A stretch of 64,000 nt of DNA from Corallococcus exiguus (lineage in GTDB: Bacteria; Myxococcota; Myxococcia; Myxococcales; Myxococcaceae). The translations under genes and the position numbers were made by a program. Positions 6,132 through 54,614 of the stretch are shown piece by piece; positions within the stretch are counted from its first letter, which is position 1, and every line of letters starts with the position of its first letter. The DNA lies in NCBI RefSeq assembly GCF_012985275.1, contig NZ_JABEKY010000003.1. The stretch is one strand, 5' to 3'. The notes under the pieces are model-generated. The model was not told the origin of the DNA and ran no database searches. It saw only the letters and a list, made by a program, of their open reading frames with translations.

Positions 6132-6962
6132 ATGCGGCCCATGTCCAACCTCCAAGGCAAGACCCTCTTCATCACCGGCGCCAGCCGCGGCATCGGCAAG
6201 GCCATCGCGCTGCGCGCGGCCCGCGACGGCGCCAACATCGTCATCGCGGCGAAAACCACGGACCCGCACCCCAAGCTGCCCGGCACCATCTACACGGCGG
6301 CGAAGGAGATTGAAGAGGCCGGCGGCAAGGCGCTCCCCTGCGTGGTCGACATCCGCGACGAGGCGCAGATCCACGCCGCCGTCGCCAAGGCCGTGGAGAC
6401 CTTCGGCGGCATCGACATCCTGGTGAACAACGCCAGCGCCATCAGCCTCACCGGCACGCTGGAGACGCCGCTCAAGCGCTTCGACCTGATGCACGGCATC
6501 AACACGCGCGGCACCTTCGCGTGCTCGCAGGCGTGCATCCCGTACCTCAAGAAGTCCTCCAACCCGCACATCCTCAACAACTCGCCGCCGCTCAACATGG
6601 AGCCGCGCTGGTTCGGCCCCCACGTGGCCTACACCATCGCGAAGTACGGCATGAGCCTGTGCGCCCTGGGCATGGCGGAGGAGCTCAAGGACGACGGCAT
6701 CGCCGTCAACACGCTGTGGCCCCGCACCGTCATCGCCACCGCCGCCGTGCAGAACCTGCTGGGCGGCGACGACACCATCAAGGGCAGCCGCACGCCGGAG
6801 ATCATGGCCGACGCCGCCTACACCATCCTCACCAAGCCCAGCCGCTCCTTCACCGGCAACTTCTGCATCGACGATGAAGTGCTGCGCGCCGCCGGCATCA
6901 CCAACCTGGACAAGTACCAGTCCGTCCCCGGCGCGGAGCTCTTGCCCGACTTCTTCCTCTAG
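6132..6962 (+). CDS. short-chain dehydrogenase/reductase (SDR) family oxidoreductase
   Basis: There is a Rossmann motif TLFITGASRGIGKAIALRAA, the SDR motif NNAS, and the catalytic YTIAKYG (YxxxK). Confidence 0.85.
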   Translation: MRPMSNLQGKTLFITGASRGIGKAIALRAARDGANIVIAAKTTDPHPKLPGTIYTAAKEIEEAGGKALPCVVDIRDEAQIHAAVAKAVETFGGIDILVNNASAISLTGTLETPLKRFDLMHGINTRGTFACSQACIPYLKKSSNPHILNNSPPLNMEPRWFGPHVAYTIAKYGMSLCALGMAEELKDDGIAVNTLWPRTVIATAAVQNLLGGDDTIKGSRTPEIMADAAYTILTKPSRSFTGNFCIDDEVLRAAGITNLDKYQSVPGAELLPDFFL

Positions 6963-18712: not shown

Positions 18713-19768
18713 ATGCCGATGAAGACCACCGGATACGCGGCGCATTCCGCGGATGCGCCTCTTTCTCCCTATACCTTCGAACGCCGCGAGCTCCGGCACA
18801 ACGACATCGCGATGGAGGTCCTCTATTGCGGCATCTGCCATACGGACCTGCATATGGCGCGCAACGACTGGGGCGCGACCCGGTACCCGTTCGTTCCCGG
18901 TCACGAGTTTGTTGGACGTGTCATCGCCGTTGGCTCGGACGTTTCACGCCACAAGATGGGCGACGCCGTGGCGGTGGGATGCATGCTCGACAGCTGCCAG
19001 CGCTGCGACCAGTGCCGCAAGGGCGAAGAGCAGCTCTGTCGCGAGGGCCATACCCACACGTACAACGGCATGGACCGGGTGACCGGAGATCCAACCTACG
19101 GGGGCTACTCGAAGTTCATGGTGGTCCGGGAGGAGTTCGCGCTCCGCATGCCGGCCGCGCTCGCCCTTTCGAAGGCGGCGCCGCTGCTCTGTGCTGGCAT
19201 CACGACGTACTCCCCGCTACGGACGTGGGGCGTCGGTCCGGGGAGCCGCGTGGGGGTCATTGGACTGGGGGGGCTTGGCCACATGGCGGTCAAGTTCGCC
19301 GTCGCAATGGGCGCCGAAGTCACCGTGCTGAGCCGCAGCGCCGCCAAGGAAGCGGACGCCCTCGCGCTCGGTGCGGATCGCCTGTTGGTGTCGACGGATG
19401 CCAAGGCGATGGCGAAAGCAGGCTCAAGCCTCGATCTCATCATCGACACGGTGCCGACGAAGCACGAGCTCCTCCCCTACCTGCCGCTCCTGGATATCGA
19501 CGGAACGCTCGTCATCGTGGGTCAGGTCGGGCCACTGGCCGAGACGAGCTCGGTGCCACTTCTCTTCGGCCGTCGCCGCATCGCGGGCTCGCCCATCGGC
19601 GGTCTCGCCGAGACCCAGGAGATGCTCGATTTCTGCAGCCGGAAGCAGGTGCTTCCAGATTGCGAGCTGATTCGCATCGATCAGGTGAACGAGGCCTACG
19701 AGCGGCTCGGGCAAGCAGACGTTCGGTACCGCTTCGTCATCGACATGGCCTCGTTGCCACAGCCGTGA
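18713..19768 (+). CDS. zinc-dependent alcohol dehydrogenase (cinnamyl alcohol dehydrogenase / YahK-like, NADP-dependent)
   Basis: The motifs are CGICHTDLH, FVPGHEFVGRV, the structural-zinc Cys cluster CQRCDQCRKGEEQLC, and the Rossmann GVIGLGGLGHMAVKFA. Confidence 0.9.
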   Translation: MPMKTTGYAAHSADAPLSPYTFERRELRHNDIAMEVLYCGICHTDLHMARNDWGATRYPFVPGHEFVGRVIAVGSDVSRHKMGDAVAVGCMLDSCQRCDQCRKGEEQLCREGHTHTYNGMDRVTGDPTYGGYSKFMVVREEFALRMPAALALSKAAPLLCAGITTYSPLRTWGVGPGSRVGVIGLGGLGHMAVKFAVAMGAEVTVLSRSAAKEADALALGADRLLVSTDAKAMAKAGSSLDLIIDTVPTKHELLPYLPLLDIDGTLVIVGQVGPLAETSSVPLLFGRRRIAGSPIGGLAETQEMLDFCSRKQVLPDCELIRIDQVNEAYERLGQADVRYRFVIDMASLPQP

Positions 19769-19791
19769 AGTCACCCAAGGAATCCAACATC

Positions 19792-22093
<2,302 letters not shown>

Positions 22094-22216
22094 AGTGTCC
22101 AAGAACTCCTCCAGCGAAGCGGTTCCGTCTTGGCTCGATCCCCGGCGTTTGTTCGAATGCCTTCCTGTCAGCGGGCCAGGATGCTCTGACCCGGTGGCCC
22201 CCACCCCGGAGGAAGC

Positions 22217-22444
22217 ATGAAGGCATCGCGACTGAAGCAGACGATTCCTGGATTCGCGCTGATCATCGGCATCATGGCGGGCACGGCCCTGGCCATGGTT
22301 CCCGGCTCGACGGCGGAGACGACTGATAGCCAGACGTCCGCTGTCCAGATGATCTGTTCGCGCACCTGCAAGCCGTGCTCGACCCAGATGGAGTGCGGCA
22401 CGAGCGGCGGTTCCTGCGGGGTCTGGCGCTGCACCCAGCCGTAA
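22217..22444 (+). CDS. small secreted Cys-rich peptide (75-aa precursor, 6 Cys in the C-terminal 30 aa)
   Basis: The signal peptide is MKASRLKQTIPGFALIIGIMAGTALA. The mature part is ...ICSRTCKPCSTQMECGTSGGSCGVWRCTQP. A strong hairpin lies 7 bp after the stop. Confidence 0.5.
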   Translation: MKASRLKQTIPGFALIIGIMAGTALAMVPGSTAETTDSQTSAVQMICSRTCKPCSTQMECGTSGGSCGVWRCTQP

Positions 22445-22450
22445 ACACAA

Positions 22451-22480
22451 GCGCCTCCGAGTCCCAGGACCCGGAGGCGC
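22451..22480. terminator. bidirectional hairpin GCGCCTCCG-N12-CGGAGGCGC followed by TCTTCT, between the convergent peptide gene and nadC
   Basis: A perfect 9-bp inverted repeat was read from the sequence. Confidence 0.6.
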
Positions 22481-22513
22481 TCTTCTGCGGATTCGTGAAG
22501 ACCGCTGACCGCT

Positions 22514-23392
22514 TCAGCCCTGCGCGGAGCGGGGCTTGCGCGTGGACTTCTTCGTCGTCGCGATCTCCAGCGACAGGTCCATGGCCCGCGCTGAGTGCGT
22601 CAGCGCGCCCATCGACACGAAGTCCACGCCCAGCTTCGCCAGCCGGGGCAGCCGGTCCAACGTGACGCCGCCCGACACTTCGATGGGCACGCGGCTCGCC
22701 GTCAGCTTCACCGCTTCGCGGATCTGCGCGTCGTCCATGTTGTCCAACATGATGACGTCCGCGCCCGCGGCGATGGCCTCCTCCAGCTGCTTGAAGTTGG
22801 TGACCTCCACTTCAATCTTCACCAGCCGGGGACCGTTCAGCTTCGCGCGGCGCACCGCTTCGGTGATGTCGCCACCTACCGCCGCGATGTGGTTGTCCTT
22901 GATGAGGATGCCGTCGAAGAGGCCGAAGCGGTGGTTGGACGCGCCTCCCATGCGCACCGCGTGCTTCGCGAGGCCTCGCATGCCCGGCGGCGTCTTGCGC
23001 GTGTCCAGCACCCGCAGCTTCGAGCCCCGCACGGAGGTCATCGCCTGCTGGGCCAGCGTCGCGATGCCGGCGGCGCGCTGCACCAGGTTGAGCGCCGTGC
23101 GCTCCGCGGCCAGCAGCGAACGCAGCTTGCCGTGGACGCGCGCGGCGACCACCTTCGGTTTGATCTCCTCGCCGTCGCGCTTGAGGACCTCCACCTCCAC
23201 CTCCGCGTCCACCATGTGGAAGACGCGGACGAAGGCGTCCAGGCCGGCGACGATCATCTGCTCCTTCGCGACCAGCTCACCGCTGCCCTCCGCTTCGGCG
23301 GGGACCACCGCCAGCGAGGTGACGTCCCCCGCAGCACCCAGGTCCTCGTCGAGGGACAGCGCGATGAGCCGATCGAGATAATCCTGCTGCAC
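22514..23392 (-). CDS. nadC: nicotinate-nucleotide pyrophosphorylase (quinolinate phosphoribosyltransferase) with a short K/R-rich C-terminal tail
   Basis: Hallmarks of the NadC family are RVLDTRKTPPGMRGLAKHAVRMGGASNHRFGLFDGILIKDNHI and MLDNM. The gene lies 9 bp downstream of valS on the same strand. Confidence 0.9.
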   Translation of the reverse strand: MQQDYLDRLIALSLDEDLGAAGDVTSLAVVPAEAEGSGELVAKEQMIVAGLDAFVRVFHMVDAEVEVEVLKRDGEEIKPKVVAARVHGKLRSLLAAERTALNLVQRAAGIATLAQQAMTSVRGSKLRVLDTRKTPPGMRGLAKHAVRMGGASNHRFGLFDGILIKDNHIAAVGGDITEAVRRAKLNGPRLVKIEVEVTNFKQLEEAIAAGADVIMLDNMDDAQIREAVKLTASRVPIEVSGGVTLDRLPRLAKLGVDFVSMGALTHSARAMDLSLEIATTKKSTRKPRSAQG

Positions 23393-36105: not shown

Positions 36106-36408
36106 ATGCGCGCCATGCATGCATGGACGAAGCTGGGGCTGATGGCGGTGCTGGGTCTGACGGGCTGTCTGGGCGACGACGACGAGGAGCCGCGCACGTG
36201 TCCGCAGGTGGTGGTGTTCGCGCGCTCGGACAGCGAGACGTGCCAGTCCTTCCCGACGCCGTGTGACGTGCCGGAGGGGTACGTCGAGTGCTGCGGCGGC
36301 CTCTTCGGGGGCTGCGCGGGGAACGTGTCCGGGAACACCTGCGTGGATGATCCGTCCGACACGTGCCAGCCCGGGGGCAGCGCGGACTGCCCGGGCATCT
36401 GCCAGTAG
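36106..36408 (+). CDS. small Cys-rich lipoprotein
   Basis: The lipobox is MRAMHAWTKLGLMAVLGLTGCLGDDDEE. There are 11 Cys in about 80 mature residues (CCGGLFGGCAGN...CPGICQ). The track ORF starts at 36064. Confidence 0.45.
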   Translation: MRAMHAWTKLGLMAVLGLTGCLGDDDEEPRTCPQVVVFARSDSETCQSFPTPCDVPEGYVECCGGLFGGCAGNVSGNTCVDDPSDTCQPGGSADCPGICQ

Positions 36409-54401: not shown

Positions 54402-54614
54402 GTGATGAAGCTCAAGATGGCGCTGGCGGCGATGGCGGCATGTCTGGGATTCGCGGCGGGATTCACCAACACCCAGGCCGAGGCGGCAGGTCCCTGTCCG
54501 TACTGTATCGACATGCGCGCCCGGTGCATGCGCAACGCGACGACTCCGGCGCAGGAAGAGGCCTGCTACGTCCAGTTCGACAAGTGCCGCATTGACTGGT
54601 GCGAGCCGCGCTGA
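54402..54614 (+). CDS. small secreted Cys-rich peptide (70-aa precursor, 6 Cys)
   Basis: The signal peptide is MMKLKMALAAMAACLGFAAGFTNTQAEA. The mature part is AGPCPYCIDMRARCMRNATTPAQEEACYVQFDKCRIDWCEPR. A strong hairpin follows. Confidence 0.5.
   Translation: MMKLKMALAAMAACLGFAAGFTNTQAEAAGPCPYCIDMRARCMRNATTPAQEEACYVQFDKCRIDWCEPR

Follow-up and report, generated by a model that had tools for sequence, protein, structure and literature searches.

Background

Whether a short open reading frame (ORF) in GC-rich DNA is a gene at all and, if so, what its product could do, is the question raised by positions 22217-22444(+) of a Corallococcus exiguus contig (NZ_JABEKY010000003.1; the whole 64,000-nucleotide stretch analysed is referred to below as the window, and all positions without a locus name are counted within it). 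The ORF runs from ATG to TAA over 75 codons plus the stop and encodes the protein MKASRLKQTIPGFALIIGIMAGTALAMVPGSTAETTDSQTSAVQMICSRTCKPCSTQMECGTSGGSCGVWRCTQP, whose cysteines stand at residues 47, 51, 54, 60, 67 and 72 with the spacing C-x3-C-x2-C-x5-C-x6-C-x4-C; the ORF and its cysteine spacing are exactly those given in an earlier note on this DNA, coordinates included. The same note supposed that genes of this kind usually escape annotation, which is wrong here: RefSeq already lists the identical protein (WP_121778328.1, “MULTISPECIES: hypothetical protein [Corallococcus]”, an exact match that bears C. exiguus locus tags). What stands here is a real gene, already annotated, with an uncharacterised product.

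Small secreted cysteine-rich proteins are central to defence, venom and signalling in eukaryotes. To our knowledge, few families of such proteins have been described in bacteria, the cis-defensins of myxobacteria being the main precedent. The interpretation that we favour for the present locus, at a confidence slightly above even, is that it forms a self-contained monocistronic unit whose product would be a mini-protein exported by the Sec pathway, held by three disulfides and binding a target outside the cytoplasm. The unit would consist of a candidate promoter, a conserved leader, a Shine-Dalgarno sequence, the 75-codon ORF and a stem-loop. The pre-protein would enter the Sec pathway through its N-terminal signal segment, and signal peptidase I would probably cut after Ala-Leu-Ala26, leaving a 49-residue product in the oxidising periplasm, where the C-terminal 30-residue module would fold into a compact mini-protein locked by its three disulfides. 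The preceding linker, mildly acidic and rich in Ala, Pro, Ser and Thr, may be a flexible spacer or else a pro-piece that is removed. Because variable loops sit on a fixed frame, the mature module is suggested to bind an extracytoplasmic target, most likely through these loops between the cysteines.

A conserved protein-coding gene

With a GC content of 69% in the window, long spurious ORFs are common there. The reported frame could therefore be one of them, opened by chance in DNA that is conserved for some other purpose or on behalf of the antisense ORF 22168-22434(-), which is 88 codons long and in phase with it. As the two ORFs have their wobble positions in common, the antisense one resembles the sense frame in third-position GC (0.83, to be compared with 0.84 in the reported frame and 0.82-0.95 in the neighbouring genes), and its ratio of nonsynonymous to synonymous substitution rates (dN/dS, or omega) looks low as well, at 0.49. 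It was rejected on account of the stop codons that interrupt it in 8 of the 12 loci scored; no stop codon breaks the sense frame in any of the 16 loci for which DNA was at hand (12 orthologs and 4 distant or paralogous members). A second antisense ORF, 22019-22450(-), was also rejected, with stop codons in the homologs and a third-position GC of 0.56.

In the sense frame, dN/dS calculated by the Nei-Gojobori method is 0.43 over the 12 orthologs; in a set of eight orthologs it amounts to 0.41, whereas the four out-of-phase frames give 0.9-1.5 and the antisense frame that is in phase gives 0.49. The earlier note had proposed dN/dS across related genomes as a check, and had counted a lack of conservation of the ORF itself as evidence against the gene; the ratio falls below those of the out-of-phase frames, and the ORF is conserved as a protein in related genomes. 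Insertions and deletions, in the first alignment of 12 homolog clusters, consist of whole codons only and all fall within the linker, the six cysteines are invariant in the 31 clusters finally collected, the Shine-Dalgarno sequence is correctly spaced, and the three-part layout of the protein is kept in homologs of only 25-40% identity. At the level of sequence evidence the chance-ORF explanation is already refuted, and we leave it next to no probability. These comparisons show a true protein-coding gene with purifying selection on the scaffold of its product.

A family confined to the Myxococcaceae

The first database search returned 12 homolog clusters with 66-99% identity, from Corallococcus or from metagenome and sequencing-run contigs, to which a genome scan added a homolog from Myxococcus sp. 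Y35. A HMMER profile search run exhaustively over 1.84 billion representative proteins yielded nine matches, six of them genuine distant relatives of 73-95 aa; P0017 and P0020, also matched by the profile, were discarded as repeat-driven false positives. A second indexed search with the enlarged profile brought the family to 31 clusters of 73-103 aa, whose named members come from Corallococcus species, Pyxidicoccus parkwayensis and a Myxococcaceae metagenome-assembled genome (MAG). Judging from these searches, the family is confined to the Myxococcaceae. It comprises at least two paralogous lineages, since Corallococcus sp. CA054B has both an ortholog (P0006) and P0019, the latter from the same lineage as COCOR_03148 of C. 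coralloides DSM 2259. One copy of the family is found in the window.

Every member is made of the same three parts, an N-terminal segment, a linker and a cysteine module. In the window protein, the first is a Sec-type signal segment (residues 1-26, MKASRLKQTIPGFALIIGIMAGTALA, 22217..22294(+)) with cleavage predicted after A24-L25-A26. It is followed by a variable linker, possibly a pro-region (residues 27-45, MVPGSTAETTDSQTSAVQM, 22295..22351(+)), recognised by its length, composition and dN/dS, and by the six-cysteine module (residues 46-75, ICSRTCKPCSTQMECGTSGGSCGVWRCTQP, 22352..22441(+)), recognised by its cysteine spacing, its invariant residues and its AlphaFold2 model. Besides the six cysteines, the residues G12, A14, L15, G18, G22, L25 and G65 are invariant family-wide, and the N-terminal consensus reads as a positive stretch followed by G-x-A-L-x-x-G-x-x-x-G-x-x-L-[ASG]. 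The linker varies in length from 15 to 38 aa; A, P, S and T abound in it, and its net charge is negative in 23 of the 31 members. The cysteine module has 27-31 residues and keeps the gaps 3/2/5/6/4 in 27 members, the third gap alone being different (4 or 6) in the remaining four.

Neither Pfam nor NCBIfam gave a match to the query protein at E <= 10; when the 31 members were compared with Pfam one by one, only scattered noise appeared, with DUF6520 (three members, E = 0.014) as the best match. No description of the family was found in the literature on myxobacterial cysteine-rich secreted peptides, Corallococcus secretomes and bacterial knottins.

Other small cysteine-rich genes were encountered in the course of these searches. 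The window contains at 54405-54614(+) a 69-aa ORF with a signal peptide and six cysteines spaced C-x2-C-x7-C-x13-C-x7-C-x4-C, which is not a member of the family (hmmsearch E = 5) and has no Pfam match. A scan for cysteine-rich ORFs also retrieved a 100-aa ORF at 36106-36408(+), with a lipoprotein-type signal (LTGC) and a cysteine-rich C-terminal half. In the Myxococcaceae MAG (locus L011), the gene directly after the family member (6344-6577(+), 77 aa) encodes a product with a lipoprotein signal (LSAC) and four further cysteines in its C-terminal 26 residues, unrelated to the family in sequence. This last case gives a hint that small exported cysteine-rich genes may cluster together.

Features of the N-terminal segment

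The signal peptide was assessed by rules, relying on the n-, h- and c-regions and on the -3/-1 rule. The window protein has the n-region MKASRLKQTIP with a net charge of +3 (+1 to +4 across the family), an h-region of nine residues (FALIIGIMA) and the c-region GTALA, A24-L25-A26 standing immediately before M27. The -3 position (A, T or S) and the -1 position (A, S or G) are small in all 31 members, and the +1 position is occupied by M, Q, G, V or I and never by proline; a glycine is invariant at -5 and a proline nearly invariant at +3. What the rules expect of a Sec signal cut by signal peptidase I is thus present throughout, namely a charged n-region, an h-region of about 7-15 residues, small residues at -3 and -1 and no proline at +1, so that the “textbook signal peptide” of the earlier note holds on every rule. 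Its wider description of a small gene for a cysteine-rich protein with a Sec-type N-terminus is likewise borne out by the comparative and rule-based evidence.

The charge, positive before the hydrophobic segment and negative after it, would place the C-terminus in the periplasm, where disulfides form. Since the signal-peptide rules are obeyed and the charges predict an N-in, C-out orientation, Sec export with cleavage after Ala26 is proposed; the export, the cleavage site, the disulfides and a binding or antagonistic role of the product are what we infer from the sequence. In 26 of the 31 members, the window protein not being one of them, a basic residue lies 1-3 positions before the residue that precedes Cys1 and may mark a second processing site.

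A type IV pilin-like (class III) signal was also considered, the invariant G12 followed by F, L, I or M being superficially alike. It was rejected because the +5 position is I, L, V, F, M or G and never Glu, and because the hydrophobic stretch ends after 17 residues.

The six-cysteine module and known cysteine-rich families

In the AlphaFold2 model of the isolated module, which reaches a mean predicted local distance difference test (pLDDT) score of 82, a small beta-bridge pair is accompanied by a short helix; modelled as part of the full-length protein, the residues of the module score 76-88. No match was obtained in a sequence-profile search of the PDB at E <= 10, nor in a structural comparison of the modelled module with the entries of the PDB, defensins and knottins included. 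The net charge of the module ranges from -3 to +2 across the family, with a mean of about 0, and the module is thus not cationic.

The closest precedent by general layout and host is that of the bacterial cis-defensins, whose five classes follow the pattern C-X(2,18)-C-X3-C-X(2,12)-C-X(4,17)-C-X-C and which the Myxococcaceae encode as secreted proteins, many of them from Corallococcus (PMC11561630). Like xanthusin-1 (PDB 7UNX) and the Corallococcus-rich class I (PMC11561630), the proteins described here are shorter than 130 aa, are encoded by stand-alone genes of Myxococcaceae, and combine an N-terminal signal peptide with a C-terminal six-cysteine module without a dedicated maturase; with 75 aa and a signal peptide, the window protein is within the 30-130 aa expected of cis-defensins. 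They differ from them by a module that is not cationic, by the lack of a PDB match in sequence or structure, and by their cysteine pattern, which fails at two points, the second gap being 2 instead of 3 and the end being C-x4-C instead of C-X-C. Assignment to the cis-defensins was rejected on this pattern and, for their cysteine-stabilised alpha-beta (CS-alpha-beta) fold, on the absence of similarity to solved defensins.

Knottins offer a second comparison, having in common with the family a length of about 30 residues, six cysteines with three disulfides possible, variable loops on a fixed framework, and a succession of signal, pro-region and mature peptide. No similarity to known knottins was found, with no Pfam match beyond noise in the 31 members and no PDB match in sequence or fold. 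As for the I-IV, II-V, III-VI disulfide pairing that makes a knot, no member of the family has lost cysteines that would betray which ones are joined. The eukaryotic gene superfamilies of the conotoxin type, precursors of venom and antimicrobial peptides, are also alike in their conserved signal, variable pro-region, conserved cysteine framework and fast loops; unlike the present family they are not bacterial, no homology links the two, and with omega below 1 no hypervariability under positive selection is demonstrated here. The suggestion of the earlier note that the product could be a knottin-like signal, a bacteriocin or an antimicrobial peptide was a guess for which no support emerged: there is no match in fold or sequence to a known disulfide-rich family, the module is not cationic and no bacteriocin or RiPP machinery is encoded nearby.

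A fast-evolving protein on a rigid scaffold

When compared over the same genome pairs with the gene of a neighbouring Major Vault Protein (MVP) homolog, the peptide gene has an omega about seven times higher (0.43 vs 0.059) and a lower protein identity (72-91% vs 96-99%), and its dN is 10-27 times that of MVP at a comparable dS; dS against the C. exiguus strains is 0.06-0.08. The linker and the loops carry the changes. Omega is 0.37 over residues 1-30 and 0.61-0.72 in the linker, the highest of the three regions; it is 0.29 for the whole cysteine module and 0.50 for the inter-cysteine loops without the cysteines. The pair formed by the window and locus L005 shows a dN of 0.19 for a dS of 0.087 (omega 2.2), on small counts (Fisher p = 0.07), and the pair with L013 an omega of 0.9. 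These values show a fast-evolving protein with a rigid scaffold, positive selection being not proved. A rigid scaffold, a conserved signal and fast loops would together form, by analogy, the pattern of secreted inhibitors, toxins and recognition peptides.

The signal-segment codons 1-30 (22217-22306) have a dS of 0.25, about half that of the cysteine module (0.53). This low value could reflect a constraint at the nucleotide level at the 5' end of the mRNA, or small-sample noise.

Exported mini-protein, anchored regulator or antagonistic peptide

Several points weigh against an exported, target-binding mini-protein. Its hydrophobic segment, with six invariant residues including a GxxxG motif, is unusually conserved for a plain signal peptide, and such conservation is just as compatible with an anchor retained in the membrane or with an element of specific recognition. 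Myxobacteria have two membranes, and Sec alone reaches the periplasm and not the medium, so vesicles or some other route would be required for the product to leave the periplasm. The data do not establish diversifying selection, since p = 0.07 for the sole pair with dN > dS and the pooled omega is below 1 everywhere. Finally, the near-zero charge of the module argues against a classical membrane-active antimicrobial peptide. This same charge leads us to favour, within the proposed reading, an inhibitor, a ligand or a specific toxin over a cationic membrane-disrupting peptide.

The conservation of the hydrophobic segment could be explained if the protein were a small membrane-anchored regulator, with an uncleaved type II anchor (N-in, C-out) tethering the cysteine module in the periplasm and a conserved GxxxG helix packing against a membrane partner such as a sensor kinase, a protease or a transporter. 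The MgrB protein of Escherichia coli, whose 47 aa cross the membrane once and whose periplasmic cysteines matter for function, offers an analogy by its inhibition of PhoQ. The family resembles MgrB-type regulators in its very small size, its N-terminal hydrophobic helix in a predicted N-in/C-out orientation, its conserved and probably periplasmic cysteines and its stand-alone genes. It differs from them by the absence of sequence similarity, its six cysteines (two in MgrB), its signal-peptidase motif, its long flexible linker and the absence of a linked two-component system. An anchor would agree with the invariance of G12, A14, L15, G18, G22 and L25, including G18-x3-G22, in 31 clusters down to about 30% identity, a divergence at which little else than the cysteines is preserved in the rest of the protein, with an N-terminal segment as conserved as the cysteine module (omega 0.37 vs 0.29) beyond the needs of Sec targeting, with the N-in, C-out charge distribution, and with a linker varying from 15 to 38 aa as a tether would. 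However, only 17 residues, three of them Gly, separate Pro/Ser11 from Pro29, which is short for a stable membrane span; the small-x-small cleavage motif and the Gly at -5 are found in 31/31 members; and no conserved neighbouring membrane protein that could be the partner appears in the contexts examined. The length of the segment, its glycine content and the kept cleavage motif favour cleavage over an anchor, and the signal may be conserved for another reason, as it is in the superfamilies of venom peptides. We therefore regard an anchored regulator as unlikely, while giving it real weight.

A narrower form of the exported mini-protein is a secreted antagonistic peptide, that is, an antimicrobial or toxic effector of the defensin or knottin kind used in predation or competition. 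Its appeal lies in the organism, a predatory myxobacterium of a group that encodes secreted cis-defensins (PMC11561630), in the location of the gene in a variable region of the genome, and in the contrast between a conserved signal and cysteine scaffold and fast loops and linker, with a substitution rate 10-27 times that of the neighbour. It sits less well with the failed cis-defensin pattern, the absence of a PDB fold match, defensins and knottins included, a net charge of about 0, an omega below 1, and the lack of any linked immunity, transporter or secretion gene. An antagonistic role in this strict sense seems to us rather improbable.

A bolder proposal extends the exported mini-protein to the family as a whole. 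The protein would be the founding member of an unrecognised, Myxococcaceae-specific family of disulfide-rich mini-proteins with a new fold and a function in an arms race, where it would act as an effector of predation or competition, as a protease inhibitor, or as a strain-recognition signal delivered via the periplasm or vesicles. The fast loops and the unusual conservation of the signal or GxxxG segment would then be marks of that arms race. We put this forward as a speculation that is doubtful in its full extent.

A probable autonomous transcription unit

Upstream of the ORF, a candidate -35 hexamer TTGGCT (22130..22135(+)), whose first four letters, TTGG, recur upstream of 10 of the 12 orthologs, is followed at 22153..22158(+) by a candidate -10 hexamer TCGAAT, identical in 9 of 12 orthologs and reading TCGACT in L001. 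The sequence of the 17-nt spacer between them varies among orthologs while the hexamers are conserved, the pattern expected of a promoter, and on this ground they are retained as candidates. The promoter prediction advised in the earlier note for 22094-22216 has a divided outcome: these conserved hexamers lie within that interval, but a scan of 21900-22700 for consensus (sigma-70) promoters and terminators found no sites. The scan requires an A at position 2, which TCGAAT lacks, so that this hexamer would be either a weak sigma-70 site or one used by another sigma factor.

The following 5' leader (22159..22207(+)) is conserved across orthologs, with the blocks GGATGCTC and TGGC(A/C)CCCACC, whatever gene lies upstream. 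Its consensus hairpin is weak (-6.3 kcal/mol), which gives weak support to a structured leader, and Rfam has no match in 22000-22600 at E <= 1. The Shine-Dalgarno sequence GGAGG (22208..22212(+)) is separated from the ATG by 4 nt. Of the 12 orthologs, 11 have it and L001 reads AGAGG; in the four distant or paralogous members its place is taken by a purine-rich GGGAG, GGAAGG or GGGAA.

A stem-loop follows the stop codon after a 5-nt spacer (22450..22481(+)) and is the probable 3' end or terminator of the transcript, as judged from its free energy and covariation. It has a perfect stem of 10 bp (22450-22459 with 22472-22481), extended by an A/C mismatch, three more pairs and a 4-nt loop, and the hairpin claimed after the stop in the earlier note is thus real and slightly better than the 9-bp one described there. 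Its folding free energy of -25.9 kcal/mol is matched by 1 of 200 dinucleotide shuffles (z = -3.7). In 10 orthologs, 94% of the cells of the stem are paired, against 28-49% in controls with a slid strand, and two stem pairs are altered on both sides (A:U, G:C, U:A); the distant members L006, L008 and L010 have hairpins of other sequence in the same place. The stem-loop accompanies the peptide gene both where the next gene is convergent (nadC) and where it is co-directional (DUF6310), and can therefore be assigned to the transcript of the peptide gene. The tail that follows the stem in the window, CUCUUCUGCGG, is poor in U, which explains that the consensus scan, based on the E. coli rule, does not call it. 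Several orthologs have better tails (CUUUUCA or CUUUCUUC), and U-poor terminators have been reported for GC-rich bacteria. The “strong terminator” of the earlier note is accordingly right as to the stem, which is strong and shows compensatory changes, and overstated as to the U-tail, which is weak.

The block extending from about 90 nt upstream through the stem-loop travels with the ORF, and the flanking genes differ between genomes. As this conserved block moves with the ORF and the stem-loop belongs to its transcript, the unit appears to be monocistronic and autonomous.

Genomic context

Family members were examined for partner genes in 16 contexts, and none recurs, neither a maturase nor a transporter. 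No radical S-adenosylmethionine (radical-SAM) enzyme, lanthionine synthetase (LanB/C/M), YcaO protein, peptidase-containing ATP-binding cassette (peptidase-ABC) exporter or immunity-like gene is found near a family member. These contexts bear on the possibility that the gene encodes a precursor of a ribosomally synthesised and post-translationally modified peptide (RiPP), such as a sactipeptide, a ranthipeptide of the SCIFF-like kind or a lanthipeptide, in which a maturase would cross-link Cys and Ser/Thr and the N-terminus would be the leader. Six cysteines and many Ser/Thr in a short C-terminal core, behind a conserved N-terminal “leader”, would suit such a precursor. In addition to the missing machinery (0/16 contexts), the N-terminus is a hydrophobic Sec-type segment and not a cytoplasmic leader, and no NCBIfam or Pfam model, those of SCIFF peptides included, matches at E <= 10. 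Because such machinery is absent from the 16 contexts, both a RiPP and a classical bacteriocin are very unlikely, and we allow the former scarcely any credence.

In the window, the gap to the upstream gene, which stops at 22093, is 123 nt. This gene is the last of a 4.4-kb island (17741-22093(+)) encoding a LysR regulator (17741-18643), a Zn-alcohol dehydrogenase, a short-chain dehydrogenase, an aldo-keto reductase and an NmrA-like NAD(P)H-binding protein. The earlier note placed the peptide gene at the end of an oxidoreductase operon; the position is correct, at this distance of 123 nt, but has no functional meaning, the island being absent from the same position in L002, L003, L005, L007 and L012-L015, which are the eight other Corallococcus loci keeping the MVP neighbour and include two C. 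exiguus strains. A functional link to the operon was rejected, the island being strain-specific.

The MVP homolog itself (15230-17506(-), 758 aa) is identified by Pfam MVP_shoulder (8.7e-45) and by Vault and Vault_2/3/4 repeats; bacterial homologs of MVP have already been reported (bioRxiv 10.1101/872010; PMC3762200). In the eight other loci that keep it, the peptide gene lies 0.25-1.1 kb from the divergent MVP homolog, which is the ancestral divergent neighbour of the peptide gene. A functional link between the two genes, neighbours in nine ortholog loci, is unsupported, as the slot between them varies, and no MVP gene is nearby in L001, L004, L006 and L008-L011.

A hotspot of gain and loss, this slot is empty in L002, L003, L012 and L013, and in the window it is filled by the 4.4-kb oxidoreductase island. 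In three loci (L015 5157-5906, L005 5195-5908 and L007 5139-5888) it contains a gene for a cysteine-rich lipoprotein of 237-249 aa, with the lipobox LLGGVGC and no Pfam match. A 71-codon C-terminal remnant of this lipoprotein gene is present at L014 5692-5907, and L003 appears to keep its last codons upstream of the peptide gene.

Downstream, too, the neighbours differ: they are nadC and valS in C. exiguus, DUF6310/DUF5953 in L005, L007 and L013, and others elsewhere. The ortholog-type loci L001, L004 and L006 and the distant or paralogous loci L008-L011 are in unrelated contexts.

Further from the gene, a second stretch of the window, at about 12.5-15.2 kb, is missing in L002 and L003. The gene 9692-11410(-) encodes a LysM domain and a C-terminal domain like VgrG3 of the type VI secretion system (T6SS; Pfam 2.8e-53), and is conserved upstream of MVP in several Corallococcus genomes.

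Conclusions

Secreted cysteine-rich mini-proteins of bacteria are already known, and what is new at this locus, as far as the sequence searches reach, is a scaffold without detectable relatives outside the Myxococcaceae. With its 31 clusters, the family defines in the same predatory lineage a second scaffold unrelated to the cis-defensins, and the model of its domain is confident yet matches no solved structure. Its existence is no great surprise, since small secreted proteins specific to a lineage are to be expected in myxobacterial genomes of 10 Mb. Should the product turn out to be a regulator tethered to the membrane, it would join the few small proteins of bacteria that are known to modulate signalling in the envelope. 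Should it turn out to be an effector or an inhibitor, peptide engineering would gain a new disulfide framework of about 30 residues, and studies of predation or kin interactions in myxobacteria would gain a handle.

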